The notes below the pieces were generated by a model. That model worked only from the letters and a program-made list of their open reading frames with translations, did not search any database and was not told the DNA's origin. Of a DNA stretch of 36,178 bases, positions 3,165-35,094 are shown in pieces. The stretch's first letter is position 1, and every line of letters starts with the position of its first letter. The translations under genes and the position numbers were made by a program. This DNA comes from a virus (Duplodnaviria > Heunggongvirae > Uroviricota > Caudoviricetes), in IMG/VR virus record IMGVR_UViG_2695420793_000017; one strand, given 5' to 3'.

Positions 3165-4265
3165 TCATTCCATTTCGAAATCATCAATCCTCACTTCAAG
3201 CTCCAGACTGGTCGTAAAACCGTTATCCGGGCTGACGGTATGCGTCAGAGTCGTAATGGTCCATTCCGCATCATCTATCGGCTGTTTAAAGCCACTGACT
3301 TTCACTGGCATTTCCGTGTAGAGATCTGCCCGCCCTTCCGCCAGTTGTAGCGAGAATGACGCAACGCCGCGTTGCAGGCGTTCCCACTGCATTTTCGCTG
3401 CCCGTTCGGCGTTACTCCGATTAGCATAGGTGCGATTAAGTACCAGCACGTTTTCATCCGTACCCACCAGGTAATCGCCCTGCTTCGCTTCCGGCTCTTT
3501 CTTCTGCTTCTTAGTCCTGCGCTTACGCTTCACCGCGGTGCTTTCTTTCTTCGCGGGTTCGCGGGTATGCAACCAGCTGGCAATTACGCCCGTGTAAGCT
3601 CCGCGATCTGCCAGGGTAAAGCGGTGACTGTCGCCGTCCTTACGTGTGATAGTGATAACCGGTAGTGGTTTACCACTGGCGCTTTTACCCTGCCCCTGTC
3701 GGATGAATAACAGATTGCCATTTTTCACCGACGCAATAGCACCGTACTGGCGCGCCAGCCGCATCAGAAAACTGCCGTCACTCTCATTGGTCTGGTCTAT
3801 ATGTTCCACGGGTTTATCTGACAGGTCTTTACCCAATGCCATCTTCAGTTTGTGCCGCGCAGCTATTTCCTTCACCACTTCCCCAACGGTGGTCTTGTGC
3901 CACGACTTTTCACGGCGGGTATTCAGTGTTTCACGAAAATCAGCACTTCGCGCCCGGATAGTCAGGCGATCCGGTGCGCCAGTGTGTTCAATCTCGTCCA
4001 CCGTGAATGCCCCTTTCGGGAAAAGCAGCTGCCCCTTCCAGCCCAGCGCCAGCGTAATGACCGCACCACGGCGCGGCAGCACGATTTTTCCATCGGCGTC
4101 GTCCAGTTCCAGATCAAGCTGGTCCGCTTCAAAGCCCCGGTTATCCGTCAGCGTAAGCCCCATCAGGCGGTTGTCCAGCACAGTAGTGATATCCCTGCCT
4201 TCAATACTGATGCTGAATGCCGGAGTTTTGTTGCCTTTGTTAAGCAGTTCAGAGCTGAAATTCAC
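3165..4265 (-). CDS. D: tail protein D (late control D)
   Basis: 366-aa ORF at the P2 gpD position; translation resembles the gpD family. Confidence 0.8.
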   Translation of the reverse strand: MNFSSELLNKGNKTPAFSISIEGRDITTVLDNRLMGLTLTDNRGFEADQLDLELDDADGKIVLPRRGAVITLALGWKGQLLFPKGAFTVDEIEHTGAPDRLTIRARSADFRETLNTRREKSWHKTTVGEVVKEIAARHKLKMALGKDLSDKPVEHIDQTNESDGSFLMRLARQYGAIASVKNGNLLFIRQGQGKSASGKPLPVITITRKDGDSHRFTLADRGAYTGVIASWLHTREPAKKESTAVKRKRRTKKQKKEPEAKQGDYLVGTDENVLVLNRTYANRSNAERAAKMQWERLQRGVASFSLQLAEGRADLYTEMPVKVSGFKQPIDDAEWTITTLTHTVSPDNGFTTSLELEVRIDDFEME

Positions 4266-4747
4266 GACAGCAGCCCTCCCACCGTTTTACTGATATCGCT
4301 TAAGGCAGACGTTGCCGTGTCCTGCAGATTATTCAGTTGAGTACTGAGATCACCGAACATATCGGACAGGGATTCATCCACCCGTTTTAGCGAAAGGGTG
4401 AACTCAATCCTGCGCGGCATACCGTCGCGGAAAAACTCCGTTTTAGTCTGATTCAGTCCCTCAATCACATACATGCCATAAATCGTGCCGCTGCCTTCAA
4501 TCAGGGGCCATGCTTTCCCCTGTTCTGCCATCTGCTCCAGTGCCAGCAACGACAGCCTGCCACCTGTTATCTCCGGCATAAGAACACCGGAAAGCGTCAG
4601 CATGTCGTTGTCCGGTCCCAGAAACTGCGTGGACGGACGTCGGTTTACCCGGCTGTTTGCCGCATGTCGCCAGCTGCGCTGATACTGCAGCTCCTGATAC
4701 GGCACGGTGCGCAGCATAAACACGTACAATCCCAGCACCATCATCAT
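4262..4747 (-). CDS. U: tail protein U
   Basis: 161-aa ORF; start codon overlaps the gpT stop; P2 gpU position and size. Confidence 0.8.
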   Translation of the reverse strand: MMMVLGLYVFMLRTVPYQELQYQRSWRHAANSRVNRRPSTQFLGPDNDMLTLSGVLMPEITGGRLSLLALEQMAEQGKAWPLIEGSGTIYGMYVIEGLNQTKTEFFRDGMPRRIEFTLSLKRVDESLSDMFGDLSTQLNNLQDTATSALSDISKTVGGLLS

Positions 4748-7700
4748 GCGTCGTATCCCCCCTGATCGCTGTAGTTACTCCTGGCTTTTGCCTTCAGCCT
4801 GCGTTCACGTTCATCAAGCTGGCGGGCCACCTCCCGCGCAATATCCTGCGCACTTTGTCCTGGCTGCGTCTGGATGATGATCTGCGTCGGTGCCTCAATC
4901 CTGTAAACAGGCGGCACAGTGGCTGCGCGACTCACAATTGCTTCTCCACCTTTCGTGGGAAGTGCCAAAGGGTGCAACGGTGGAAGCTCTGCTGGCGCGG
5001 CAGCAACGCCCATCATTCCGGCAACAACGGCAGCCAGTGCAGCTGTATTTCTCCGGCTGGTCACATTTGCCGGGCCGTTAACAATTTCCGGCCCGTTTTC
5101 ACCGACGATGCCAAACTGCCCGCGCGGGATATACCCGCCGCTGTCATACATCCCCGCAAAGCCATATCCCCATGATGGAAAACCACCCGATGGCATCATC
5201 ACTTTACCGTCTGCATTCACCGTCGCAGGTTGCTGACGCGTCACGCTTTCCGGCAGTTTTGCCTTTGCGGCCTCTTTACTGACAATGCCGAGTTTATCCA
5301 GCAACCAGGAAACGCCGGATTTCAGGGAGTCCAGCGGATGCATGACCATATTCAGCCCTTCCGCCAGTGCCTCCCCGAATCGCCGCCCCATTGCCGCTGC
5401 ACTCTGCAGTTCGGCAGAGGTCGACTTAACGGGCGTCAGCAGATCAGTAAACCAGCCCCACAGCGCCTGTACTTTGTCGCCAATCCACTGAAACACAGGC
5501 TTAAGTGGTTCGAATGCAGCACTGATGGGAGCTGCCGCCGCTTTGAATCCTTCAACCACGCCACCGAGAAATGCGGTGATGGGTTGCCAGTATTTCCAGA
5601 CAACCAGCGCCACGCCCGCCAGTGCAGTAACCACAAGACCTATCGGACTGAGCAGAGCACCTAACAGACCAGATATGGCATACAGGGCAACGCGCAGCAT
5701 CGCCAGCGGACCAGATGCAAGCACACGAAGCACCGCGCCTGCGGCAGCCAGTCCACCGCGCAGTACCGCCAGAGGATTCATAAACATCACAGCAACAGCA
5801 CGTAAAGCGGATAATCCAGACCGCAATAGTGCAACCGGCGCACCTGCTACAGTTTTCAGGACATTTCCCGTCAGTGATGCCGTACGGCGCAAAGACGACA
5901 ACGGCGCAGTAAGTAAACCCGCTGCGTTACCCGATGAAGCAAGCCCGCGTCGCAGCACTGCCAGTGGAGCGCCAGCCAGCCAGGACAACGCGCTGCTGGT
6001 TCGTGTTACTGCTGCCGTAACGGAAGGTAACGTTTTGATGCCCAGCACAGAGAATCCCAGACGGATGACTGCCAGCGGCCCCAGCACTGCAGCCAGCGCC
6101 ACAGCCAAGATGCCGAGGCCTACGGTAACCGCAGCCACAATAGCGGCTACTTTCATCAGTGTGCCCGTCAGTTCCGGGTTAGCTTCCACCCAGCGACGCA
6201 ACGCCCCCGTGACGCTTTTCACCGTGTACAGAATATCCATCAGCGGCTGGCGCAGCGTTTCGCCCAGGCTGCTGAAGGTGTTCTGCGCTCCGGTTTTGAC
6301 CAGCAACCACTGAGCAGAAAGTGAATCCTTGTTAATGTCGGATTCTTTCTGCATGGAGCCGAGCGCATCATTGCCCGCTGTCAGTTTTAACTGACGCTGC
6401 AGTTCCGGCAGGTTGTTTGCCAGTTTCGCCGCGTCATCGCCAAACTCTTTACCAAACAACATAGTCATGGCAGACAGGCGCTTGTCCTGCGGCAGCGCGT
6501 TTACCTTCTCCAGCACGCGCTGGATGGTTCCCATCGCATCCTTCGTCATCTGCTTTTCAATCACTTCAGGATTGAGTTTCAGCAGATTCATCCCTTCAAA
6601 GAAACTCTTGCTTTGCATGGTGGCAATGGACAATTCACGCACCATCGCGTTTGCTGCACTGGCTGCAACCTCCGGCGCAGCACCCAGAGTCAGGAAGGTG
6701 GAACCCAGCGCCGCCGCTTTACGATAATCGAGACGGTCAGCCACACCGCCCAGACGTTGCATCACATCGATGATGTCTGCCCCTTTCGACATTGCGTTAT
6801 CATCCAGATAGTTCAGCGCATCACCGAGCTGTTCAATATTGCGGGTAGGTATTTTGTAGAGCTGGGCGATTTTCCCCAGACTTTCTGACAGTTCATCCGC
6901 TGGCAGCTCAAAGGCTGTTGCCGCCTTCGCCGCCGTACTGGCGAAGGCCAGCAGGTCACGTTTCTGGTCTTCCCAGCTGTCGTCAGGATTTGCGACGTTC
7001 ATGCGCGCACCACCTTCAACCAGTGCAGCGAAGTCCACCGCACCGTTTTCCATCGGCAACTGTTCGCTGGCAGCTTTGATGGCATCCTGCATTTCATAAA
7101 AACGTGCAGTGCGGTTGCCATTATCGTCACGCAGACCATTGACCTGCTTTGCCACACCTTTCATGGCATCTTCCATGCTGGTATAGCTTTTTACTGCCGC
7201 CATCACTGGCGTCCCCATTGCCAGCCCTGCAGCCGTGGTGGTGGCTCCGGCTCCTGCGATGCGATCGCGCACCTCCAGCGAACGGGCATAACTGGCACGC
7301 GCTGCATTCATCCTGCGCTGAGCTTCCCCCAGTCGCTTCAGCCGCGCCTCCTGTTTCGACAGTTCCTGGTTATAACGTGATGTTTCACGGGCTAAACGGG
7401 CAGTTGCTCCCGCATCGTCTTTCGCAGAAATTCCCGCCCGGTACAGTTCAGCACGCACAAGCGCCGTCTGCTGCTGCAGCTTTTTCTGGCGTTCTTCCAG
7501 GCGCTGAACAGCCAGCCGTTGACGGCCCAGAGCAACAACCTGACGTTGCGAAGGCGGCCCCATCGCTCCCAGTTCCTGACTGAGCAAATTTGCACGCTGG
7601 CGGGCATAGTTCAGCCTGTCGCCTAATTTCTGATTTTCTGCCTGCAGCTTTCGGAAGCTGTCCAGACTGCTCCCGGCCTGATCAAGCTGCTTTATTGCAT

Positions 7701-7821
7701 CGCGGGATTTTTTGACAGCAGCAGCCAGTTCTCTTGAACTGGCCTGCGCAGATCGAAATGGGCGGGTGAGCTTGTCAACCGCATTAAGAATGACCTGCAG
7801 ACGCAGGTTGTTATCACTCAT
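4744..7821 (-). CDS. T: tail tape measure protein T
   Basis: 1025-aa Ala/Leu-rich ORF with a coiled-coil N-terminus, immediately downstream of E/E'. Confidence 0.85.
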   Translation of the reverse strand: MSDNNLRLQVILNAVDKLTRPFRSAQASSRELAAAVKKSRDAIKQLDQAGSSLDSFRKLQAENQKLGDRLNYARQRANLLSQELGAMGPPSQRQVVALGRQRLAVQRLEERQKKLQQQTALVRAELYRAGISAKDDAGATARLARETSRYNQELSKQEARLKRLGEAQRRMNAARASYARSLEVRDRIAGAGATTTAAGLAMGTPVMAAVKSYTSMEDAMKGVAKQVNGLRDDNGNRTARFYEMQDAIKAASEQLPMENGAVDFAALVEGGARMNVANPDDSWEDQKRDLLAFASTAAKAATAFELPADELSESLGKIAQLYKIPTRNIEQLGDALNYLDDNAMSKGADIIDVMQRLGGVADRLDYRKAAALGSTFLTLGAAPEVAASAANAMVRELSIATMQSKSFFEGMNLLKLNPEVIEKQMTKDAMGTIQRVLEKVNALPQDKRLSAMTMLFGKEFGDDAAKLANNLPELQRQLKLTAGNDALGSMQKESDINKDSLSAQWLLVKTGAQNTFSSLGETLRQPLMDILYTVKSVTGALRRWVEANPELTGTLMKVAAIVAAVTVGLGILAVALAAVLGPLAVIRLGFSVLGIKTLPSVTAAVTRTSSALSWLAGAPLAVLRRGLASSGNAAGLLTAPLSSLRRTASLTGNVLKTVAGAPVALLRSGLSALRAVAVMFMNPLAVLRGGLAAAGAVLRVLASGPLAMLRVALYAISGLLGALLSPIGLVVTALAGVALVVWKYWQPITAFLGGVVEGFKAAAAPISAAFEPLKPVFQWIGDKVQALWGWFTDLLTPVKSTSAELQSAAAMGRRFGEALAEGLNMVMHPLDSLKSGVSWLLDKLGIVSKEAAKAKLPESVTRQQPATVNADGKVMMPSGGFPSWGYGFAGMYDSGGYIPRGQFGIVGENGPEIVNGPANVTSRRNTAALAAVVAGMMGVAAAPAELPPLHPLALPTKGGEAIVSRAATVPPVYRIEAPTQIIIQTQPGQSAQDIAREVARQLDERERRLKAKARSNYSDQGGYDA

Positions 7822-8250
7822 CGTTGGCCCCGCTTCTCTGAATCGCTTTATACCGCCATTCCAGCACTTCGGTCAGCGGCATAACGTCAGTAACGGATGG
7901 CGGCCAGTGAAAAATGGTGGCGATATCTGCCACCAGATCGTCAACCGTCAGGCTGTCGGTAAACCGGCAAGCACCGACTTCTTCAACAAAAAAGTGACAA
8001 CCTCAACCGACATGGCAGTGAGATCTGCCGGGTCCATCTCTGCAATTTCCTGTGCAGTCAGTGCCGGGCTGGAGATGCGGGGGATCACGGTCATCATCGC
8101 GTTCACATCCATATCCATAATCGCCTGCAGGCGTGTACCGCGCAGCGCACCGGAATGCGGTTTGCGCAGCACAATTTCGGTGATTTCTGTTTTACCACGC
8201 TTGATAGGGGTATCCAGTTGAATGGTCTTTTCAGTCTGCTTATCGCTCAT
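7814..8250 (-). CDS. tail assembly chaperone E+E', predicted -1 frameshift product (about 145 aa)
   Basis: heptamer T_TTT_TTG at 7993-7987 (minus strand) in the E frame; the -1 frame stays open for 57 codons to a TGA at 7816-7814 that overlaps the gpT ATG. Confidence 0.7.
7948..8250 (-). CDS. E: tail assembly chaperone E
   Basis: 100-aa ORF between FII and T; contains the T_TTT_TTG slippery heptamer near its 3' end. Confidence 0.8.
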   Translation of the reverse strand: MSDKQTEKTIQLDTPIKRGKTEITEIVLRKPHSGALRGTRLQAIMDMDVNAMMTVIPRISSPALTAQEIAEMDPADLTAMSVEVVTFLLKKSVLAGLPTA

Positions 8251-8304
8251 TTTGCTGTCCTGTAAATTAGGTTCTGGCGCGGTATTCCGCGCCGTTCAGA
8301 TACA

Positions 8305-8820
8305 TCAGAGGCCGAGGGCGTTACGGTGTGCTTCCATCAGGTCCACACCGTCCACGATTTCCACCATGTTGATGAGGTCCACTTCATAGAGCACCTCACC
8401 ATTGATTGTCAGCTTCGCGTAGCTGTTAGTGCTGGTCACTTTGGTGGTGTTGCTTTCGCCCGTCTTCCACTCACCGGAATCCACTTCTTTGTGACGCCCA
8501 CGCACTACAAGCTCTACGGCCTGCACTTCTCCGGTATCGTCACGCTGGATAGAGCCGGTAAAGCGCAACTGGATGCCATCCACAGTGGCTTTGCCCATCT
8601 GCTTAAACAGCAGCAGTTCAGTACCACCAATGGAAAATTCTGTGTCCAGAGCACTGTCATCAAGTCCCAGATCCACATCCACTGCACCCGGCATTCCGCC
8701 GCCGCGATACTTCTCATATTTGCGGGTGAATTTCGGCAGTGTCAGCGACTCAACGATCCCCTGCCAGTTGTTCCCGTCGTTAAACAGGTTCAGATGTTTT
8801 AATTTGCGTGGTAAAGCCAT
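8305..8820 (-). CDS. FII: tail tube protein FII
   Basis: 171-aa ORF at the gpFII position downstream of the sheath gene. Confidence 0.8.
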   Translation of the reverse strand: MALPRKLKHLNLFNDGNNWQGIVESLTLPKFTRKYEKYRGGGMPGAVDVDLGLDDSALDTEFSIGGTELLLFKQMGKATVDGIQLRFTGSIQRDDTGEVQAVELVVRGRHKEVDSGEWKTGESNTTKVTSTNSYAKLTINGEVLYEVDLINMVEIVDGVDLMEAHRNALGL

Positions 8821-10518: not shown

Positions 10519-10950
10519 ATGGCTTATTTTTATTCAGCATTAAATAACGCTTTCTACCCTGATGAGCTCAGAGATGTTTATGAAGCGAGTAGAAACTGGC
10601 CTGACGATCTCATAGCCGTCTCAGATGAGACATTCACTGAATATTCGGGGATGCCACCAGAGGGTAAAACTCGTGGAGCTACTGAGGATGGAATGCCGGC
10701 ATGGGTAGACATTCCACCTTTAAGCCATGAGGAGGAAATCGCAGCAGCTGAAGCTGAAAAACAGTATCGTATCGATCAGGCTAATGAGTATATAAACAGC
10801 AAGCAGTGGCCGGGTAAAGCTGCGCTGGGGCGACTTACAGACGACGAGAAGGCCCAGTATAACGAGTGGCTGGATTATCTCGATGCGCTGGAATCTGTGG
10901 ACATATCCAGCGCACCAGATATCAACTGGCCTGAGTCGCCGGAGGAGTAG
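10519..10950 (+). CDS. tail fibre assembly protein, alternative copy (tfa')
   Basis: 143-aa ORF homologous to the minus-strand tfa (shared ...AFY.DEL..., ...WPDD..., ...ALAEAEK... patterns); convergent with and overlapping it at 10922-10950. Confidence 0.7.
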
Positions 10951-11353
10951 GCCAGTCCGGGTCTGCTGTATCAACTCGCATCAGCAGCACCCGGTATTTT
11001 TTCCATTCGGCTAATGAAACAGTTTCTTCTTCCGTCGCGATCCCCGCATCAACGGCGTCCTGCCGCCATTCTATTTCAGAGTCAGCTGAAGCACGCAGTC
11101 GCGATTTTTCGGCTTCTGCCAACGCAATAATTTCCTCTTCAGTTGGTTCGGGAATATCTATCCATTCAGGTAAACCATCAGAATTAGGAGCGCGTAATTT
11201 TCCGTTAGGTGATTCTCCGGCAAACTCAACGAATACGGAATAGTCTACTTCAACGGCATCGTCAGGCCAGCTACCTGCATTTTCATAAATACTTTTTAGC
11301 TCATCAGCGTAGAACGCATTTTCTTTTGCAGAATAAAACATATTAATCACCAT
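10922..11353 (-). CDS. tail fibre assembly protein (gpG-like)
   Basis: 143-aa ORF immediately downstream of H; the P2 G position. Confidence 0.8.
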
Positions 11354-21186: not shown

Positions 21187-22953
21187 ATGAACACCACACT
21201 GACACCCGCAGATCTCGATCCCCGTCGGCAGGCCATGCTGCTGTACTTTCAGGGATACCGCGTAGCCCGCATTGCTGAAATGCTGGGCGAGAAAGTTGCA
21301 ACCGTTCACAGCTGGAAAAAACGCGACAAGTGGGGTGACTATGGGCCGCTGGATCAGATGCAGCTCACCACCGCCGCACGCTACTGCCAGCTCATCATGA
21401 AGGAGCACAAAGAAGGGAAAGATTTCAAAGAGATTGACCTGCTGGCGCGCCAGTCGGAGCGCCACGCGCGGATCGGCAAGTTTAACAATGGCGGCAACGA
21501 AGCCGACTTAAACCCTAACGTCGCCAACCGCAATAAAGGCCCACGCCGTCAGCCGGAAAAGAATGTTTTCACCGATGAGCAGATTGAGAAGCTGGAAGAA
21601 ATCTTCCATTCCTCCATGTTCAACTACCAGCGCCACTGGTGGGAAGCCGGAAAAACCAACCGCATCCGCAACCTGCTGAAGTCACGCCAGATCGGCGCGA
21701 CCTTTTACTTTGCCCGTGAAGCCCTGATTGACGCCCTGCTTACCGGACGTAACCAGATTTTCCTTTCCGCCAGCAAGGCACAGGCCCACGTCTTTAAGCA
21801 GTACATCATCGACTTCGCCAAAGAAGTGGGGGTGGAGTTGAAAGGCGATCCGATGGTGCTTCCTAACGGGGCCACGCTTTACTTCCTCGGCACCAATGCC
21901 CGCACGGCCCAGAGTTATCACGGCAACCTGTATCTGGATGAATATTTCTGGATACCGAAATTCCAGGAGCTGCGCAAAGTGGCTTCCGGTATGGCTATTC
22001 ACAAAAAATGGCGACAAACCTATTTTTCCACGCCATCCAGCCTGACACACAGTGCTTATCCGTTCTGGTCCGGTGCGCTGTTCAACCGTGGGCGCAACAA
22101 GGCCGACAAGGTGGACATCGACCTGTCCCACAGCAATCTGGCCCCCGGCCTGCTGTGCGCAGACGGGCAATACCGCCAGATAGTCACCGTGGAAGATGCG
22201 GTGCGCGGCGGCTGTAACCTGTTCGACCTTGACCAGTTGCGCATGGAGTACAGCCCGGACGAATACCAGAACCTGCTGATGTGCGAGTTTGTGGACGATC
22301 TCGCGTCCGTATTTCCGCTCAGCGAGCTGCAGGCGTGCATGGTGGACAGCTGGGAAGTCTGGACCGACTTTCATGCACTGGCTCTGCGCCCGTTTGGCTG
22401 GCGCGAAGTGTGGATCGGTTATGACCCGGCAAAAGGTACGCAAAACGGCGACAGCGCCGGATGCGTGGTGGTGGCACCGCCAGCCGTGCCTGGTGGTAAG
22501 TTCCGCATTCTTGAGCGTCACCAGTGGCGCGGGATGGACTTCCGCGCCCAGGCTGACGCCATCAAAAAACTGACCGAACAGTACAACGTGACCTATATCG
22601 GTATCGACTCAACCGGCGTTGGTCACGGGGTTTATGAGAACGTGAAAGCGTTCTTTCCTGCCGTCCGGGAGTTTGTCTACAACCCCAATGTTAAAAACGC
22701 CCTGGTACTCAAGGCCTACGACATTATCAGCCACCGCCGTCTGGAGTTTGACGCCGGGCACACCGACATTGCGCAGTCATTTATGGCAATCCGTCGCGCT
22801 ACCACTGCCAGTGGCAACCGCCCGACCTATGAAGCCAGCCGCAGCGAAGAAGCCAGCCATGCCGATCTGGCCTGGGCAACAATGCACGCACTGTTTAACG
22901 AACCGCTGCAGGGCGAGTCCGCCAATACCAGCAATATTGTGGAGATTTTTTGA
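21187..22953 (+). CDS. P: terminase large (ATPase) subunit P
   Basis: 588-aa ORF; gpP family; stop overlaps the Q start. Confidence 0.85.
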   Translation: MNTTLTPADLDPRRQAMLLYFQGYRVARIAEMLGEKVATVHSWKKRDKWGDYGPLDQMQLTTAARYCQLIMKEHKEGKDFKEIDLLARQSERHARIGKFNNGGNEADLNPNVANRNKGPRRQPEKNVFTDEQIEKLEEIFHSSMFNYQRHWWEAGKTNRIRNLLKSRQIGATFYFAREALIDALLTGRNQIFLSASKAQAHVFKQYIIDFAKEVGVELKGDPMVLPNGATLYFLGTNARTAQSYHGNLYLDEYFWIPKFQELRKVASGMAIHKKWRQTYFSTPSSLTHSAYPFWSGALFNRGRNKADKVDIDLSHSNLAPGLLCADGQYRQIVTVEDAVRGGCNLFDLDQLRMEYSPDEYQNLLMCEFVDDLASVFPLSELQACMVDSWEVWTDFHALALRPFGWREVWIGYDPAKGTQNGDSAGCVVVAPPAVPGGKFRILERHQWRGMDFRAQADAIKKLTEQYNVTYIGIDSTGVGHGVYENVKAFFPAVREFVYNPNVKNALVLKAYDIISHRRLEFDAGHTDIAQSFMAIRRATTASGNRPTYEASRSEEASHADLAWATMHALFNEPLQGESANTSNIVEIF

Positions 22954-23987
22954 TGGGAAAGAGTAAGAAGAACCGCGCTGCGTCGACGAAACAGATCCAG
23001 CATAAAAGCCAGACTTCAGCCGAAGCATTCAGCTTCGGTGATCCCGTTCCTGTTCTGGACCGCCGCGAACTGCTGGACTATGTGGAATGCGTACAGATGG
23101 AGCGTTGGTACGAGCCACCCGTAAGTTTTGACGGACTGGCGCGCACCTTCCGGGCTGCCGTGCATCACAGTTCCCCGATTGCAGTAAAGTGCAACATTCT
23201 GACCAGTACCTATATCCCTCATCCGCTGCTCAGCCAACAGGCTTTTTCGCGTTTTGTACAGGACTATCTGGTATTTGGTAACGCCTACCTGGAGAAACGC
23301 ACGAACCGATTCGGTGAAGTTATCGCCCTTGAGCCTGCGCTGGCAAAATACACCCGACGCGGGTTAGACCTGGATACCTACTGGTTTGTGCAATACGGTA
23401 TGACAACCCAGCCGTATCAGTTCACGAAAGGCAGCATTTTTCATCTGATGGAACCGGACATCAACCAGGAGATCTACGGCCTGCCCGGCTATCTTTCTGC
23501 CATCCCATCCGCTTTGCTCAACGAGTCCGCCACGCTGTTCCGCCGCAAGTATTACATTAACGGCAGTCATGCCGGCTTCATCATGTACATGACCGATGCC
23601 GCGCAGAACCAGGAGGATGTGAACAACCTCCGCAACGCAATGAAAAGCGCCAAAGGTCCGGGTAACTTCCGCAATCTGTTTATGTACTCGCCTAATGGTA
23701 AAAAAGACGGACTTCAGATTATCCCGTTGTCAGAAGTCGCAGCGAAGGATGAATTTCTGAATATCAAAAATGTTAGTCGCGATGACATGATGGCGGCACA
23801 CCGCGTGCCGCCACAGATGATGGGGATAATGCCAAATAATGTTGGGGGGTTTGGGGATGTGGAGAAGGCAAGTAATGTATTTGTACGCAATGAACTAATA
23901 CCATTGCAAAAAAGATTTGAAGAGTTAAATGTTTGGTTAAAAGAAAAAGTGATACAGTTCGAAGAATATAAACTTCATTCAAATTAG
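22950..23987 (+). CDS. Q: portal protein Q
   Basis: 345-aa ORF; gpQ family. Confidence 0.85.
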   Translation: MMGKSKKNRAASTKQIQHKSQTSAEAFSFGDPVPVLDRRELLDYVECVQMERWYEPPVSFDGLARTFRAAVHHSSPIAVKCNILTSTYIPHPLLSQQAFSRFVQDYLVFGNAYLEKRTNRFGEVIALEPALAKYTRRGLDLDTYWFVQYGMTTQPYQFTKGSIFHLMEPDINQEIYGLPGYLSAIPSALLNESATLFRRKYYINGSHAGFIMYMTDAAQNQEDVNNLRNAMKSAKGPGNFRNLFMYSPNGKKDGLQIIPLSEVAAKDEFLNIKNVSRDDMMAAHRVPPQMMGIMPNNVGGFGDVEKASNVFVRNELIPLQKRFEELNVWLKEKVIQFEEYKLHSN

Positions 23988-24019: not shown

Positions 24020-25270
24020 TTATCGCCATTTTAGATAAAAAGCAAAAAATGGATCAGTAATATGCAACTTTCGGTCCTCCTTATCCCAATCTATTACAGG
24101 AGTTGAAGCTTCTTCCGTAGCAGCTATTTTAGCCATTTTTTCTATAACACGAGTAACCTCATGAGCTTGTGGAGGAGCATCTTGCACCAGTTCGCGTATG
24201 GCTGATCTTAACTCCTCATACTGAATACTTTGCATTCCTGGTTTCATATGTGACAATGCATATAATACAACTTTATATATATCTACTTCCTCACCACTTT
24301 TCAGTTTTCTAGGAATTCTGTCAGTTCGCTGATTAGGGCCACTAGCTAACTTATCAAATACTATTTTCCCAGTGGATTCTGCAACCTTTCTAAAAATATC
24401 ATCATCTAAAGAATTAATAACTAACTTACTCGGCAAAGTTTCTTTAACATTATTTACTAAGCATATAGCCTTGCAAAACTCTTGCATTAAATGAGGGCTT
24501 CCCAATGATTCATTGGCAATTTTATCAATTACTGAATCACTAACTTCCATGTTTAACAGAGGAAATCCCACTTTTGCTATTTGTTTTAGTTCATCCATTT
24601 CCCACGAAGGCATGGAAATATTTTCTAGCCGTCCGGTAATTTCTTTTTCAACTTTTACAGCATCATATCTTCGATGTGGAATGGCTATCAGTACAACTGG
24701 TACTCCATCAAAAACTAATGGTTTTATCGCTCTAATAAAGTTACCTTGTAGGTCACGATCAAGGTAATGAAAGTCATCAATTATAAGACTAGACTTGGTT
24801 TGAGAGAGAACTTTTAGTGCAGAACTTTTTGCGGATATCGTTCGCGATTTTTTATTACCATTTGACTTTCCATCCGTCTGAACTAAACCAGCCTCACCTG
24901 TACCTTTAACAACGAATGCACTTGCGGTCCCCGATACCTTACCACTAACTGCAATAGCACTATTTTCTCCAGAATTAACTTCAATACTATGGTAGCCATT
25001 TAGTTTTTCTAATACCTGCTCCCAAATATCATCTTCAGTTGTAATACTCCCACCGTCAATCCATACAACATCATCGTCCATAACTGGGAATACCATTCTT
25101 GTAATTACAGTCTTACCAGACTTTGTTTGCCCAGTTAAAGTCACTAACTTACATAAATTATCTTTAGCACTCTCCAGTTTTCCATGAACCTCTCCTTCAG
25201 AGCGCTCAACATAAGTCAATTTCGGCATACCGCCAGGCACAAAAACTTGTGAAGCACGTTGTTTATCCAT
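24020..25270 (-). CDS. P-loop NTPase of unknown function (accessory gene, candidate anti-phage defence)
   Basis: 416-aa ORF; Walker A GQTKSGKT and Walker B-like LIIDDFHYLDRD; visibly AT-rich versus neighbours; lies between cos and Q. Confidence 0.8.
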   Translation of the reverse strand: MDKQRASQVFVPGGMPKLTYVERSEGEVHGKLESAKDNLCKLVTLTGQTKSGKTVITRMVFPVMDDDVVWIDGGSITTEDDIWEQVLEKLNGYHSIEVNSGENSAIAVSGKVSGTASAFVVKGTGEAGLVQTDGKSNGNKKSRTISAKSSALKVLSQTKSSLIIDDFHYLDRDLQGNFIRAIKPLVFDGVPVVLIAIPHRRYDAVKVEKEITGRLENISMPSWEMDELKQIAKVGFPLLNMEVSDSVIDKIANESLGSPHLMQEFCKAICLVNNVKETLPSKLVINSLDDDIFRKVAESTGKIVFDKLASGPNQRTDRIPRKLKSGEEVDIYKVVLYALSHMKPGMQSIQYEELRSAIRELVQDAPPQAHEVTRVIEKMAKIAATEEASTPVIDWDKEDRKLHITDPFFAFYLKWR

Positions 25271-25378
25271 GAATACTTCCCAATTAACACAGTTCTAGTG
25301 AACTACGATTCTAAAATAACATCTGAGCTTGGACAATTAACATTACATGATTTGAGTATTCAAAGCCACAAGCGCGCG

Positions 25379-25397
25379 CTCGTATCCCCGCCACGCC
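25379..25397 (-). other. putative cos cohesive-end sequence
   Basis: minus strand reads GGCGTGGCGGGGATACGAG, matching the start of the P2/186 cohesive ends as I recall them; exact 3' part differs. Confidence 0.5.
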
Positions 25398-25776
25398 TGC
25401 CCGCTTTATGCAGTGGTTTTCATGCACATGCATGACATGAGCAAAAGCCCGCCAGTTCTGGCGGATCTGAGCAAAGACGATCCTCAATCGATCATGCGAT
25501 TTCATGCAGCATAGTCATGCACTGTCAAGGAAGTGAAAATCCGTATCTGAATGGCCACTTGAAAAACGGATCATACGGGTTTACAAAGATGAATGTTCGC
25601 TGTGAACGGGAAGCGGAAGTTAGCTTTCAGATAACATAATCCATATGCACGAGAACCTCTAAAATAGAATGGGACACCTAAGCGGGGTACTTACAACGAT
25701 TCTTTCCATATTCACAGTTAACACTCTGTTTGGCGTATTTTTATTCAAATAGCAAACACCAATAAAAGGAGTTTCC

Positions 25777-26112
25777 ATGAACAATATTCCCCCTATACCA
25801 CAGTTAGGAATTTATGTCTCAAAAATCGATCCCACCCTACGTATCACTGTAACCGATGTTGATATTGTTGATGGTGAGGATGATTCTCCTGATGATGAAT
25901 TGTTTTATTTAGTCCACTGGATCGAGGGGGAAGATGAAAGTGATATGACAGCAATGGGATTTGAGCTAGACCCAGTAGAGTGGCAGGCTTTCGTTGAATC
26001 TGAGCAATTAGTGTTTGAGCGTGATCCGTACATGGATTCAATCCCCGAAAATTCAAACTTGGCAAAGATTCGGGATTTTCTCATGAAGACTAAACAGAAT
26101 GATCATTCGTAA
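25777..26112 (+). CDS. highly acidic hypothetical protein (possible DNA mimic)
   Basis: 111-aa ORF; AAAGGAG Shine-Dalgarno 7 nt upstream; about 26 Asp/Glu versus about 7 Lys/Arg by hand count. Confidence 0.65.
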   Translation: MNNIPPIPQLGIYVSKIDPTLRITVTDVDIVDGEDDSPDDELFYLVHWIEGEDESDMTAMGFELDPVEWQAFVESEQLVFERDPYMDSIPENSNLAKIRDFLMKTKQNDHS

Positions 26113-26304
26113 GTGTAAGCATCCATCAGGAAAATGGTTTTGTAAGTGAATCATCAACTTTTAGAGAGTCTCAGACACTCCCACTTCTGCTTCTGACACA
26201 AAGCGGACGATCACTTATCAAAATAACCGCCCACCTTACGCCTTATTTCACTCATTGCCCAAACTAGCCCCCATCAGAATGAATCCTCCTGGGGGCCACG
26301 TTTC

Positions 26305-26538
26305 TTAATGCAGCCAGCTGTCGTCCTCCCACACCTTCTGCATAATTTTCATCACTTGTTTTCTTTCTTCATCCAGTTGCAGTCCGGTTAGTTCCACACC
26401 GTTAGAGCTACCTTTGCGAATGCGAATTACCGTTTTGGGATACAGGGGGCGCAGATTGCGGTAAAGCTCGGATTCAAGGGCGTCCAGGGTAGACTGGCTA
26501 ATCTTCTGCTCTTTATCGATCATTATTTCAATGCGCAT
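26305..26538 (-). CDS. DinI-family protein
   Basis: MRIEIMIDK...WEDDSWLH resembles E. coli DinI (MRIEVTIAK...WESADDWF) as recalled; start set at ATG 26538 with a GAGGTGA Shine-Dalgarno overlapping the upstream stop. Confidence 0.7.
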   Translation of the reverse strand: MRIEIMIDKEQKISQSTLDALESELYRNLRPLYPKTVIRIRKGSSNGVELTGLQLDEERKQVMKIMQKVWEDDSWLH

Positions 26539-26548
26539 AAAAGTCACC

Positions 26549-26737
26549 TCAGCTGATGACATCCATTGAGCGGTTGTATTCGTGACTTCTGATTTTTGCC
26601 ATAAGTTCATCAGTCAATTCAGAAACCCACTGCAGAGCCAGCCCCTTCTCTTCATCACTACACTCACTAGCCGCTACAAGCTTAAGAAAAAAATCAATGC
26701 GCTGAAGCTTCAAAGACTCCAAAAAATAGTCCTGCAT
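26549..26737 (-). CDS. small hypothetical protein, first gene of the LexA-box operon (possible Tum-like N-terminal module)
   Basis: 62-aa ORF with an AGGAGG Shine-Dalgarno; a LexA box lies about 45 nt upstream; translationally coupled to the dinI-like gene. Confidence 0.55.
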   Translation of the reverse strand: MQDYFLESLKLQRIDFFLKLVAASECSDEEKGLALQWVSELTDELMAKIRSHEYNRSMDVIS

Positions 26738-26777: not shown

Positions 26778-26797
26778 CACTGTTTATATTTACAGTA
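26778..26797. promoter_or_regulatory. LexA box (SOS operator)
   Basis: cACTGTttatatttACAGta = CTGT-N8-ACAG with an AT-rich spacer, overlapping a candidate -10 for the minus-strand operon. Confidence 0.65.
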
Positions 26798-26889: not shown

Positions 26890-29304
26890 TTAATACAGGT
26901 TCCGCCACTTATCATCTTCCTTCAGACGCTGGTTCCGATAGAAGATACGCAGGCCTGCTCCTGACGGAATACTGCCGCCGCGAAGGAGCAAATCGACTTC
27001 TTTCTCGCTGCCATCAAATCCCCTGGACTTCAGTTCATAGACGAGCTGCTGTCGCTGATGGTCTGTAATTCGCTGTTTGTAGTCTTTACGCCGTTTCGGT
27101 TTCACCTGGCGTAACCTTGCAGCCAGTTCCCGGCGCTCTTTTTTGCTCATACTGTGCAGGTAATCGTGCAACTCCTTGTCATTCATACGGGTAATATCCG
27201 TTCTGGAGTCCCCATCAGCTGATTTGTCTTTCCCTTGTTGGTTCAAATTTTCAGCAAGGGGACAGTTATTGCCACGAGTCCAAGGGGCGCAAGCGCCCTG
27301 GTCGGCTGCCGCCTCCTGAACATCAACGGCCTTACGAACCATTTTCCACTTCACGGCATGAGTGCAGATCTTGCCCTCTGCAATAGGTGACCAGATGCCA
27401 TAAATACGAATGCCGTGATCGCCATAGGCGGTCGGCTCTTCGTTGATTTCATAAGCGGTTCTGATGAGGTGATATTTGCGGGGAACCAGTACGCCGCCCT
27501 GCTTCATGATGTAGGTGGCAAAACAACCAGCATCAGCAGCAGCCAGGATGGCATCAAGGCGTGGGTTATCCAGTACCGGCGCACCTGCTTTTTTGTCCCC
27601 CTGTTGCCTTGCCGCCTGACCAGCCAGCAATCGCAGTTCACGGTAAGCCTGACGCCCCGGAATGCCAAAGAAGCGGAATTGCTGAACACGATGCAGAGAC
27701 GCCCAGGCATTCACGTATTCAGCGTTATCACGCAGAGATTTACCCGTTTCCTTACTGATCTCGCCAGCCAGACCACGCCCGTCAATGTTCTTGCTGATAT
27801 ATTTCGCGATGTAGCTTGTCGGCGTTCCTTTGCGCGGGTTAATCAACTCAGACTTAAAGCGCGGCCCCGTGTTATTGCCCAGCTCCTCGCGGTCTTCACG
27901 AATGGCAAACTTACGCAACAAAGCAGTAATGGCGCGGCGATCTTTTTTGCGCATAAAACACAACAGGTGCCAGTGAACTGTACCGTCATGATGCGGCTCC
28001 GCCACCCGCACGCCATACCAGCGCAATCCGGATTTGTGCATAGCCTTACGAAATGCAGCAAACATGCCGACCAGATAATCGCTGCTTTGTCTTACTGTCG
28101 CGTTGGTCCAGGTCGGGTTTGGCCTGCCGTTATTTAGCGTGGAATGGAAACGTGACGGACAGGTGATGGTGTAGAAAACGGCGCAGTCACCACGCATTTC
28201 CGCGATAAGCTCCAGACCTTTAACGCAGGCCATCATCTCATTGCGGCGATGCGCCGGGTTGCTGCTGCTGGCGTTTACCACATCCTCCATGTCCAGCGTG
28301 TCGCCGTCTTCGTTCACCAGTTCATGAGAGCGGAAAAACTCCAGCGACTTACGGCGCTGCTCACGTTTATGCATCACGGCTTCATAGCTAACATAGGGAG
28401 ATGCTTTTTTGCTGACCAGACAAACAGCACGCAACTGCTCTTCCCGCCATTCGCAACGCATCTTCCATAATTTCCGATACCACCAGTCGGCGCACAGCAT
28501 ACGCGCCAGCGAACCCGGAATGAGTTCATAGGGCACAGGTTTGCGGCGGTTTCTTTTCCGGCGGAGTTGCTCAAACGCAGGCGGTATGACATCCAGTCGC
28601 AGGGTTTCTGCTGCCACCTTTTCCCATGTCTTGCGGATTTCTTCCGGCTTAACATCATCGGAGGCATACAAATCGCCACAAGCTGCATCAAGGCACATGC
28701 TCATATGCGCAGCAACAAGGGTGGACAGGCGTTTCACCTGATCCTGACTCATTTCAGGCAGAATCAGCAGGCCGTCCAGCCCTTCATGGCTTGCCATAAA
28801 GCGAAAAGAAGTGGATAGCTGACTGTCGCGTACATGCTCCAGCCGTTCCAGACATGGCTTAATCGTCTCACGCAAATAGCGGGAATAAGCCTTTGGCCTG
28901 CCCAGGCTGCTGAAGTATTCAATACGTTGCATCAGCGGCTTGCTGATATGGGAAGGCTGGGCGCTGACATCTGCCAGAATGACCATGTCCGGGTTAAAAC
29001 GCTGCTGTTCATGCGCCAGCTTTGCCCGGCTAATGAGCTTATCCTGCTCCATTTCGCGCTGGACAGGATCACGGGATTCATTAAAGAAATAACGTTCCCA
29101 GACCTGATCACTCAGTGCCTCGCGGCGGCGCTGTTCCTGCTCGTTATCAGCAGCGTACAGAGTGATCATGTTTGAAAGTGCAGACTCCGGCGCAACTTCC
29201 GCCGGTTCCAGATAAGGGTTAATGGCCTTTTTCGGGCCGTTCCATGAAAATGCTGCGGCAGCCTCGTTAAAGCCGCTAGAGTTGCTCATATCGTCATGAC
29301 TCAT
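26890..29304 (-). CDS. A: replication initiation protein A (rolling-circle nickase family)
   Basis: 804-aa ORF at the gpA position in the early operon. Confidence 0.8.
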
Positions 29305-33100: not shown

Positions 33101-34039
33101 ATGTCAACTCAAAAAAACACATTTCGCCATATTAGCGAGAGTCTAAAAACTTCAATAATGCAAAACCGTGGGGGACAGAAAGTAATTGAGCGTATACTTG
33201 CTGCGTATGGTTTTACTTCGCGGCAAGCATTTTGCAATCATCTGGGTATCTCACAAAGCACGATGGCTAACAGGTATGCTCGTGACACATTTCCTGCTGA
33301 CTGGGTGATAATTTGCAGTATAGAGACCGGCGCATCTATCGACTGGTTGGCATCGGGAATCAGCTGTGAATCATCCTCAGTTTTATTAAATGATGAACGT
33401 TTAGCCCATACCAAATCTGATGACCTGGATAGAACTAACTCAATAGCCCAAAAGTTCCCAATCGAGACCAGCATAAATCCTAATAAAGGAGGGAAGGCGG
33501 CAATTGATCGCTTAGTCGCAGCCTACGGCTTTAGCACCCGACAAGCCCTAGCAAACCATTTGCAGGTTTCAAAAAGCACTGTAGCAAACAGGTACTTACG
33601 AGACACGTTTCCTAGCGATTGGATCATTCAATGCGCTCTTGAAACAGGAACTTCATTACTCTGGCTCACAAACGGCAATGGCCCCAAATTTATCGATAAT
33701 TCCAGCTCTGTAGCCCAACTTAAACACCAAACAATCATTGACGGTAAATTACATGATGAAGGCTACTTAGCATTTGACAAGACGCTTATACCTTCCGGAT
33801 TGAAAAAACCTATTGGAGTTACCGCAGAAGGAAAAACCTTTATTGCAGATACAGAATATGATGATGTTTCAGATGGTAGTTGGTTGATTGAGATTGAAGG
33901 TAAAGTAAGTTTAAGAAAATTAACAAGAATTCCAGTTGGAAAAGTAAAAATCACATCAGATACAACTGATTTTGTTTGTAAGCTTGAAGACATTACAACC
34001 ATCGCAAAATGTTGTTGCGTTTTTTCAAAGGAAATTTAA
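33101..34039 (+). CDS. cI: CI-like immunity repressor with a tandemly duplicated N-terminal DNA-binding domain
   Basis: 312-aa ORF; two homologous modules (...ERILAAYGF.SRQAFCNHLGISQSTMANRYARDTFPADW... and ...DRLVAAYGFSTRQALANHLQVSKSTVANRYLRDTFPSDW...) followed by a C-terminal domain. Confidence 0.75.
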   Translation: MSTQKNTFRHISESLKTSIMQNRGGQKVIERILAAYGFTSRQAFCNHLGISQSTMANRYARDTFPADWVIICSIETGASIDWLASGISCESSSVLLNDERLAHTKSDDLDRTNSIAQKFPIETSINPNKGGKAAIDRLVAAYGFSTRQALANHLQVSKSTVANRYLRDTFPSDWIIQCALETGTSLLWLTNGNGPKFIDNSSSVAQLKHQTIIDGKLHDEGYLAFDKTLIPSGLKKPIGVTAEGKTFIADTEYDDVSDGSWLIEIEGKVSLRKLTRIPVGKVKITSDTTDFVCKLEDITTIAKCCCVFSKEI

Positions 34040-34049
34040 AGGAACATAC

Positions 34050-35039
34050 ATGAATTCTGAAAATAAAAAAAATGAAAACAACGATTATGTTGAAAAAGTT
34101 AATTGCGAATGGAAAGATCTTTATAATATTTTAAATGAAAATCTGCATAAATTTAATGAAAATGAACGCGCCTACTTAGTCGACTTATTAAAAAAAGGTG
34201 AACTTGATAAATTCAGAGAATACTACTGGAAATTAGCCCAGCAAGAAAAAATGAACTACAGCGATAAAGCTGGAGATATTTTTATTAATGAAAACAATAA
34301 GATAGATGAATTAATAAAAGAACAAAAACATCTTCGAGAGATAATGCGATCATATACCAAACGTTTATTGGAGGCTGAAGAGTCCAAAGCTACGTTACAT
34401 CTTCGGAATGAGAATTTAGAAAAACTAAATTCTGAAAAAGAAGCAATTATTGAGCAAGCCGTATCTAGAATAAAGCAACTTGAAGCATCTAACAGCGAAT
34501 TACAAAGCCGAGTACAACAAGAAAGGATTGATGAGAAAATACCAGGATATGTCGATAGCGTTAAAAGTGAACTAAGTTCAGATGACTTATATTTCATTAA
34601 AATGTCGCAAGTATGGGCTTTTACTGGCTGCATTTTTGGGCTACTTGCTGTATGTGCATCATTTTATACACTCTACGCCACAATTGACTTCAACAATGTT
34701 AAAGGCTTTGAGCTATTTTATTTTTTCACACGTGGTTTAATTGGTATTTCCATTCTTTCTTGGCTAGCATATATTTGCCTTGGCAACTCTAAAAAATATA
34801 CCCATGAATCAATTTTGAGAAAAGATAGAAGACATGCACTAATGTTTGGGCAAGTATTCCTGCAAATTTATGGTTCCACGTCAACAAAAGAAGATGCTGT
34901 GTTAGTCTTTAAAGACTGGAATATGTCTGGTAACTCTGCATTTTCTGACAAAACAGAACTCCCTCCGGGAATCCAATCTTTATGGGATTCAACCAAAGAA
35001 AAACTAAAGCCAAGTACCGCTGAAAAAGCACAGGAGTGA
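34050..35039 (+). CDS. hypothetical coiled-coil/two-TM protein (AT-rich moron between cI and int)
   Basis: start set at MNSENKK (AGGAA Shine-Dalgarno); Lys/Glu/Asn-rich coiled-coil N-half, two hydrophobic helices; strongly AT-rich by eye. Confidence 0.7.
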   Translation: MNSENKKNENNDYVEKVNCEWKDLYNILNENLHKFNENERAYLVDLLKKGELDKFREYYWKLAQQEKMNYSDKAGDIFINENNKIDELIKEQKHLREIMRSYTKRLLEAEESKATLHLRNENLEKLNSEKEAIIEQAVSRIKQLEASNSELQSRVQQERIDEKIPGYVDSVKSELSSDDLYFIKMSQVWAFTGCIFGLLAVCASFYTLYATIDFNNVKGFELFYFFTRGLIGISILSWLAYICLGNSKKYTHESILRKDRRHALMFGQVFLQIYGSTSTKEDAVLVFKDWNMSGNSAFSDKTELPPGIQSLWDSTKEKLKPSTAEKAQE

Positions 35040-35074: not shown

Positions 35075-35094
35075 AACTGTTTAAATATACAGTT
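35075..35094. promoter_or_regulatory. LexA-box-like palindrome upstream of int
   Basis: aACTGTttaaatatACAGtt = CTGT-N8-ACAG; function uncertain. Confidence 0.35.

Follow-up and report, generated by a model that had tools for sequence, protein, structure and literature searches.

A mobile single-gene cassette of P2-like prophages and Enterobacterales islands encodes DUF8087, a conserved acidic protein that may serve as an inhibitor in element-host conflicts

The 36,178-nucleotide stretch of DNA analysed here, hereafter called the window, is the IMG/VR record IMGVR_UViG_2695420793_000017 of a virus of the Caudoviricetes, and is a P2/Fels-2-like prophage. Close to its cos site, an open reading frame (ORF) at positions 25777 to 26112 codes for a small, very acidic protein of the DUF8087 family. 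This ORF is a real and functional gene maintained by selection, as indicated by its strong Shine-Dalgarno sequence, its conserved start and the ratios of nonsynonymous to synonymous substitution rates (dN/dS), which range from 0.10 to 0.22 in pairwise comparisons, orphan copies included. The window copy is an orphan, carried in an autonomous single-gene mobile cassette with its own upstream region, and the ancestral home of the family is a variable slot just upstream of the integrase gene, in the lysogeny operon of P2-like phages. The family has already been catalogued as a DUF, and both a function and a literature are missing from its record. We tentatively propose that DUF8087 is an acidic inhibitor, a decoy resembling DNA mimics, used in conflicts between mobile elements and their hosts.

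A first-pass annotation of the window had pointed to this ORF for its strong Shine-Dalgarno sequence, for about 26 acidic against about 7 basic residues in its product and for two acidic runs, DGEDDSPDDE and EGEDESD. All of this was borne out by the sequence and its translation. The 111-amino-acid (aa) protein contains 15 Asp and 11 Glu (26 acidic residues) versus 4 Lys and 3 Arg (7 basic residues) as well as both runs; its Asp+Glu content is 23%, its isoelectric point (pI) 4.05 and its net charge approximately -19. The window has 156 ORFs of 60 aa or more, and this product is the most acidic of all, with a net charge of -0.17 per residue.

The protein matched phrog_17127, a PHROG without assigned function, from end to end (residues 1-111 of 111, E 2e-70), and the identical E. 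coli protein is labelled 'DUF8087 domain-containing protein' by the Prokaryotic Genome Annotation Pipeline. PF26332 (DUF8087) is precomputed on all homologues, of which 61 were found in one search and 86 in another. A Pfam-A scan of the protein gave no family at E <= 1, because the local Pfam copy is older than the PF26332 model, and none of the PADLOC-DB 2.0 and NCBIfam anti-phage models matched it. The family appears to be small. The search of 5.8 billion proteins returned only 61 clusters, 50-100% identical, all from Enterobacterales and all with PF26332; an exhaustive profile search of 1.84 billion representatives returned only 35 members; and a second profile search returned 86, every one of them single-domain, with no domain fusion found among these hits. 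Distant members are 68-132 aa long and have in common a core of approximately 70 aa, with the pattern P..GLYVS...P..R..VEDV, an acidic loop and FFLV..V.E.D..DM.A...ELDP.EW..FV....L, in the alignment of which P8, G11 and W69 are invariant. At 25-68% identity to the query, all 31 members examined have kept the acidity (pI 4.05-4.53, median Asp+Glu content 23%); this conservation, together with purifying selection, argues that it is not due to chance. Among the closer members the EGEDExD loop is nearly invariant (E50, G51, E52, D53, E54 and D56). The most striking acidic run, DGEDDSPDDE, lends the mimic reading no support: it lies in a loop that is modelled with low confidence, varies in length and is nearly absent from several relatives.

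The structure was predicted with AlphaFold2 from a 30-sequence alignment. The best model was folded (mean predicted local distance difference test score, pLDDT, of 79; predicted template modelling score of 0.65), with strands at residues 11-15, 22-32, 42-50, 60-64 and 78-82 and helices at residues 66-76, 84-87 and 94-109, and with an acidic loop of low confidence at residues 31-40 (block mean pLDDT of 61). The protein is predicted to be soluble and single-domain, with a small SH3-like beta-barrel of approximately 70 aa and helices. Confidence in this fold is moderate, because mean pLDDT differs between the five models, from 43 to 79. A disordered predicted structure had been named in the first-pass annotation as speaking against its proposal; the prediction returned a folded protein. 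Foldseek comparisons with the PDB and with viral models gave no match below E = 0.01, and the family profile, compared to all PDB sequences, gave only matches at E > 1 to unrelated proteins.

The unit that moves is larger than the ORF and comprises upstream regulatory DNA, the ORF and a 5' remnant of an integrase gene. In blastn comparisons, the window from 25599/25614 to 26148 was 84-89% identical to loci of Serratia, Symbiopectobacterium, Lonsdalea and Proteus, in which the cassette is the sole segment in common with the window. The upstream region travels with the ORF in the alignment (A2) and its divergence (K = 0.16-0.20) is approximately half the synonymous rate of the ORF (dS = 0.27-0.41). 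This slower evolution suggests that the region is a functional promoter and 5' untranslated region (5'UTR). A scan for consensus sigma-70 promoters on the plus strand upstream of the ORF found nothing, neither an Ogr-type late promoter (TGT-N12-ACA) nor a LexA box was found there, and no Rfam family matched in or around the cassette at E <= 1. The integrase remnant, at the other end, is the scar of the original place of DUF8087 just upstream of int. Among the related loci, which are designated L followed by a number, longer integrase remnants of 28-62 aa are present in L003-L006, L013 and L043-L045, and int is intact in L008-L012, L019, L051 and L053-L055.

The native context of the gene was found in P2-like prophages of Klebsiella, Buttiauxella and other hosts, in relatives that are 42-77% identical to the query. 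The genes are ordered there as a CI-type repressor, a tail-anchored protein of approximately 210 aa, DUF8087 and a P2-type integrase, the start of which is often overlapped by DUF8087 by 4-14 nucleotides (nt). The tail-anchored protein is similar to the N-terminal domain of Flk, a flagellar regulator (NCBIfam PRK10715, E 3e-16). The possibility that the 170 nt upstream of the window ORF are the remnant of such a Flk-like gene was rejected, as no tblastn match was obtained. The orphan context is that of copies at least 85% identical to the query, which consist of approximately 170 bp of upstream DNA, the ORF and the int 5' remnant, and which lie either beside cos in E. coli P2-like prophages or, in Serratia, Symbiopectobacterium, Lonsdalea, Proteus and Morganella, at sites with no P2 genes within 6-7 kb. 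We conclude that the cassette moved into the cos-proximal accessory (defence) hotspot and spread to islands of several Enterobacterales genera. The gpA-gpQ/cos region is a variable accessory hotspot of P2-like phages (PMC9122126) and the integrase-primase region of P2 is a hotspot of anti-phage cargo (PMC13586616); DUF8087 is present in both.

More distant members were found in other settings. Those of 94 aa, with a basic N-terminal extension, lie between a P4-type integrase and an operon of alpA and a gpA-like gene, in islands that carry BglII restriction-modification (R-M), Gabija-like or TIR-NLR-like cargo; others adjoin integrase fragments, and others again have no obvious mobile context. 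Two small islands of this kind, in Nitrosospira multiformis (L142) and in a metagenome contig (L143), at approximately 3400-8800, contain a P4-type integrase, an AlpA-like helix-turn-helix (HTH) protein, a gpA-like replicase and BglII R-M, Gabija-like (OLD-TOPRIM and UvrD), SMEK_N or TIR-NLR-like cargo, and their DUF8087 genes, of 94-101 aa and with the basic extension MGQAKLRGSKEERIAQ..., are divergent from the alpA-gpA operon. A lone Pantoea copy lies at the pgsA-uvrC attachment site, which is used by Klebsiella P2-like prophages. In Morganella (L013-L016, 2242-5751), the cassette follows a gene for a 1169-aa helicase (AAA_11/AAA_12) fused to a PLD nuclease domain and precedes a segment of a CP4-like island with IrmA, DUF932, Antirestrict (PF03230) and a YeeP-like GTPase.

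Of 5426 complete E. coli genomes, 132, with BL21(DE3) and E2348/69 among them, carried the cassette at a coverage of at least 80%, and 1267 carried the cos block, so that approximately one in ten prophages of this type carries the cassette. The identical protein is present in many E. coli lineages, and in related phages the segment from cos to the DinI-like gene is empty or holds other ORFs. DUF8087 was found in none of 50,697 GenBank phage records and in one of 72,556 plasmid records.

The neighbours of the cassette were considered as possible partners. WP_001059831.1, the protein identical to that of the window, adjoins retron St85/Ec86 in BL21(DE3), DprA-type cargo in E2348/69 and a 416-aa PDC-S59-like ATPase in the window. 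A partnership with any of the three was rejected, because the acidic protein is the same at loci whose cargo is not. Among 27 IMG/VR contigs with the same cassette, the spacer between gpQ and cos varies from approximately 200 to approximately 2500 bp and the window ATPase occurs in none. This AAA_22/AAA_16-like ATPase gene fills the gpQ-cos slot of the window, the only one to carry it when compared to these 27 related loci, and has a G+C content of 37% versus 51% for the window. An obligate pair with the Flk_N-like protein, of the toxin-antitoxin or abortive infection (Abi)-like type, was likewise ruled out: DUF8087 is present in only 5 of 80 Flk-like loci and occurs without a Flk-like gene in the window, L001-L006, L013 and L020-L050. 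The other occupants of the Flk-int slot code for signal-peptide proteins, BRCT-like proteins, or pairs of a zinc-ribbon and a membrane coiled-coil protein. In IMG/VR P2-like contigs L062-L140 (approximately 3600-5800), this segment from the Flk_N-like gene to int is hypervariable, with gaps of 306-2251 bp, the signal-peptide proteins being of 115 aa and the BRCT-like ones of 288-392 aa. Translational coupling of DUF8087 to int was rejected as evidence of a functional link; since the same abutment or overlap with int is seen for unrelated slot occupants, it is attributed to module exchange via the conserved 5' end of int. In the window itself, the slot from repressor to integrase (33101-35039, plus strand) contains the gene of an unusual 312-aa repressor with duplicated HTH regions (phrog_4), followed by that of a coiled-coil protein of approximately 330 aa with C-terminal hydrophobic segments (phrog_2628, no assigned function). 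The latter is probably another moron, in the slot where relatives carry DUF8087.

The DUF8087 protein of the window has 111 aa and neither a catalytic motif, a membrane segment nor an obligate partner gene, and charge is the only property found throughout the family, which makes stoichiometric binding through an acidic face the most economical explanation. Its sole family-wide property, a dense negative charge on a rigid scaffold that includes the nearly invariant EGEDExD loop, would form an acidic face able to dock on a target protein where its basic surface binds nucleic acids, and thereby to block this target. The conflicts served would be those of P2-family elements with their hosts and with competing elements, and the target could be a defence nuclease of the host or else, in a P2-family element, a recombinase or a DNA-binding regulator. 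Nothing in the data points to restriction enzymes in particular. The proposal of the first-pass annotation, a candidate anti-defence protein of the Ocr and ArdA kind, thus survives in part: a folded, acidic protein encoded by a mobile cassette in an accessory hotspot fits an inhibitor, and no link to Ocr, ArdA or ArdB was found. We regard an acidic inhibitor as the best of the readings considered, possible but short of probable.

Several points weigh against it. Searches by sequence and structure revealed no likeness to known DNA mimics or anti-defence proteins, and a literature search for DUF8087, PF26332, phrog_17127 and WP_001059831 found no paper. The five structural models are widely spread, a monomeric domain of approximately 70 aa is small compared to the dimers of Ocr or ArdA, and the sole promoter-like signal upstream of the gene is weak. 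Placement in hotspots is guilt by association, and these hotspots are mainly known for defence, not for counter-defence. The functional evidence for DUF8087 is circumstantial, and the gene is a reasonable candidate, not an established anti-restriction factor.

It is doubtful, on present evidence, that DUF8087 is a nucleic-acid mimic of a new fold that neutralises a widely conserved DNA-binding defence or regulatory protein, such as a type I R-M or BREX system, a CRISPR effector, or a rival P2-like element's own repressor or recombinase. Were it so, the P2 hotspots would have their first native family of counter-defence genes. In E. coli, Klebsiella and Salmonella, P2-like prophages serve as a major reservoir of anti-phage systems, and known types of counter-defence have been reported in only 28 of 1511 P2-like elements (PMC13586616); a literature search for DNA mimics in P2-like phages found nothing relevant. 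Should DUF8087 be an inhibitor, it would add a member with a new fold to the class of acidic mimics and anti-defence proteins, and the 'defence hotspots' would be seen to carry offensive cargo as well. Should it be a lysogeny or exclusion factor instead, it would be one more ordinary moron. The presence of the identical protein in BL21(DE3) and in the enteropathogenic E. coli strain E2348/69 makes it testable in standard strains, and DUF8087 might be an unnoticed influence in BL21-based phage or defence experiments.

Alternatively, the protein may be made in the lysogen and disable a DNA-binding protein of incoming phages, or protect in some other way, as a factor of lysogenic conversion, superinfection exclusion or defence. 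Both P2 slots that it occupies are documented defence hotspots, its native place is within the immunity-repressor operon, and the genes that replace it in the Flk-int slot have the appearance of morons for exclusion or defence. DUF8087 is also confined to temperate elements and, beside cos, it occupies what we take to be the position and orientation of P2 old. Such a role is nevertheless of rather low probability: no anti-phage model of PADLOC or NCBIfam matches the protein, and stand-alone defence effectors are not typically soluble proteins of 70-110 aa that lack enzymatic and membrane domains.

The recurrence of the gene near integrases of unrelated lineages could point to a regulator of the integration, excision or lysogeny of the element itself, which would bind and restrain Int, a Cox/AlpA-type excisionase or the repressor, as a CarS-like antirepressor or anti-excisionase. 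DUF8087 lies directly upstream of P2-type int, often with the short overlap mentioned above, and elsewhere it is found between P4-type int and an alpA-gpA-like operon, between int and alpA, or convergent with an Int_N integrase; a precedent is provided by CarS, an acidic antirepressor with an SH3-like fold. We nonetheless consider this unlikely. Unrelated genes of the slot abut or overlap int likewise, so that the overlap reflects a recombination junction and not a specific coupling, and integrase-proximal regions are generic cargo sites. Moreover, most P2-like phages do without the gene (it is missing from 75 of 80 Flk-like loci, and the cassette is present in approximately 132 of 1267 E. coli genomes with the cos block), and orphan copies without an intact int are still under purifying selection.

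The position beside cos bears on whether DUF8087 is a DNA mimic of the Ocr/ArdA type that blocks type I R-M (or BREX) upon entry of the phage DNA. The gene does lie next to cos, as the first-pass annotation had stated: the 186/P2-type cohesive end GGCGTGGCGGGGATACGAG is on the minus strand, and the record of Felsduovirus phage SEN8 terminates exactly at the base aligned to window position 25398. The site was located through conservation and this record terminus, as the P2 cos sequence GGCGAGGCGGGGAAAGCAC, with up to 3 mismatches allowed, has no match in the window, and its length of 19 nt was set by analogy with P2 and 186. The ORF starts 379 bp inside cos, and no other gene lies between it and this end of the virion DNA; the 416-aa ATPase, which is the variable cargo, is encoded on the opposite side, between cos and gpQ. 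The small size, the extreme and conserved negative charge, the predicted folded state and the Antirestrict gene approximately 4 kb away in the Morganella island would also suit such a mimic. However, cos phages would circularise quickly on entry, and an end position would give little head start. The placement in a leading or early region, which the first-pass annotation had assumed, is not that of the family, whose ancestral position between repressor and integrase belongs, in P2, to the lysogenic transcript. Generic anti-restriction genes such as ardA are common in plasmids and phages, and DUF8087 is nearly absent from the former and absent from the records of the latter. Since there is moreover no homology or likeness in fold to Ocr, ArdA or ArdB, DUF8087 being beta-rich and Ocr all-alpha, and since the DGEDDSPDDE loop is dispensable in relatives, we consider an Ocr/ArdA-like role decidedly unlikely.

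Lastly, a decaying hitch-hiker without current function, left over from a rearranged lysogeny module, is very improbable: the truncated integrase fragment flanking the ORF, the internal stop codon of one relative (L050) and the lone Pantoea copy at an old attachment site are in keeping with it, but the low dN/dS among orphan copies, the identity of the protein across many E. coli lineages and the conservation of the upstream region and Shine-Dalgarno sequence are not.

The features of the window around the cassette are listed in the table; loci L001 and L002 were annotated with the same gene layout. The GC-rich hairpin between the convergent DUF8087 and DinI-like genes is probably a bidirectional terminator. 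A LexA-box-like palindrome, CTGTTTATATTTACAG, is present at 26780-26795, upstream of a 62-aa phrog_698 ORF (26549-26737, minus strand) that is followed by the DinI-like ORF and overlaps it in a different frame, an arrangement reminiscent of the tum module of phage 186, which is under SOS control and located at the cos-proximal end. A second palindrome of the form CTGT-N8-ACAG, CTGTTTAAATATACAG, lies at 35077-35092, 34 bp upstream of the position where the integrase gene starts (35126); the window has a pair of these palindromes, compared to 0.5 expected by chance. Next to DUF8087 in acidity among the window ORFs are two convergent, overlapping genes for 143-aa acidic tail-fibre-assembly proteins (phrog_188) at 10519-10950 (plus strand) and 10922-11353 (minus strand), an arrangement that suggests alternative or invertible tail-fibre cassettes.

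Table. Coordinates of the DUF8087 cassette, the cos site and neighbouring features in the window
Feature	Position	Strand	Remarks
Terminase gpP	21187-22953	+	annotated gene near the acidic ORF
Portal gpQ	22950-23987	+	annotated gene near the acidic ORF
416-aa P-loop ATPase	24020-25270	-	PADLOC candidate defence family PDC-S59, E 2e-31
Non-coding stretch	between the 416-aa ATPase gene and the acidic ORF		
Conserved non-coding cos block, 154 bp	25370-25523		83-91% identity in Fels-2, SopEPhi and Klebsiella/Yersinia/Salmonella P2-like phages
cos cohesive end GGCGTGGCGGGGATACGAG	25379-25397	-	186/P2-type; linear virion DNA end; motif search and SEN8 terminus
Mobile DUF8087 cassette (~550 bp)	~25600-26148	+	upstream regulatory DNA, ORF, integrase 5' remnant
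Conserved ~170-nt upstream region	25603-25776	+	putative promoter and 5'UTR
Weak sigma-70-like site	25711-25741	+	TTCACA-19 nt-TATTTT; promoter scan
Inverted repeat	25727-25732/25753-25758		in the upstream region
Inverted repeat	25739-25745/25761-25767		immediately 5' of the ribosome-binding site, the start of which it overlaps
Shine-Dalgarno AAAGGAG	25765-25771	+	5 nt before ATG
DUF8087 gene	25777-26112	+	ATG 25777 to TAA 26112, 111 aa; identical to WP_001059831.1 of BL21(DE3) and E2348/69
P2-type integrase 5' remnant, 16 codons	26099-26149	+	MIIRKCKHPSGKWFCK*; overlaps the end of the DUF8087 ORF
GC-rich hairpin GCCCCCA...TGGGGGC	26267-26296		between the convergent DUF8087 and DinI-like genes; minimum free energy -16.8 kcal/mol, z = -1.96
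DinI-like gene	26305-26610	-	convergent with the DUF8087 gene
Replication endonuclease gpA	26890-29304	-	followed by Dam methylase

The DUF8087 protein was compared with known systems. It is like Ocr (T7 gp0.3) and ArdA in its small size, very low pI and carriage by mobile elements. These two are elongated helical dimers, whereas the DUF8087 model is a beta-barrel monomer, and, unlike them, DUF8087 is nearly absent from plasmids, absent from phage records and ancestrally placed in a lysogeny operon. No homology to Ocr was detected (no Pfam family at E <= 1, and only unrelated PDB profile matches at E > 1), and the model does not have the all-alpha elongated dimer fold of Ocr, in which carboxylates trace bent B-DNA. 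Neither homology to ArdA nor its three-domain elongated fold was found, and no Pfam hit links the protein to ArdB/KlcA (PF03230), the Morganella Antirestrict gene being a separate one. The trait of DNA mimics as a class, dense Asp and Glu on a stable folded scaffold, is present (pI 4.05, charge -19, pLDDT 79).

DUF8087 has no homology to acidic anti-CRISPR and host-takeover inhibitors that act as DNA mimics, such as AcrIF2, AcrIIA4, T7 gp5.9 and SPO1 Gp44 (PMC8208478). Inhibitors of this class are single small acidic proteins with idiosyncratic folds, encoded in stand-alone cassettes at variable prophage positions. No HTH gene of the aca type adjoins DUF8087, the downstream sequence consisting of the 16-codon int remnant, the hairpin and the convergent DinI-like gene; a missing aca gene does not exclude anti-CRISPR (Acr) activity. 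CarS of Myxococcus xanthus is an acidic antirepressor with an SH3 fold that mimics operator DNA. Among the cargo of the P2 gpA-gpQ (cos) region, Old and Tin are larger and have known exclusion phenotypes, whereas DUF8087 has no PADLOC hit; old and tin occupy, as DUF8087 does, the slot that separates cos from the replication genes, and are likewise swapped between otherwise similar prophages.

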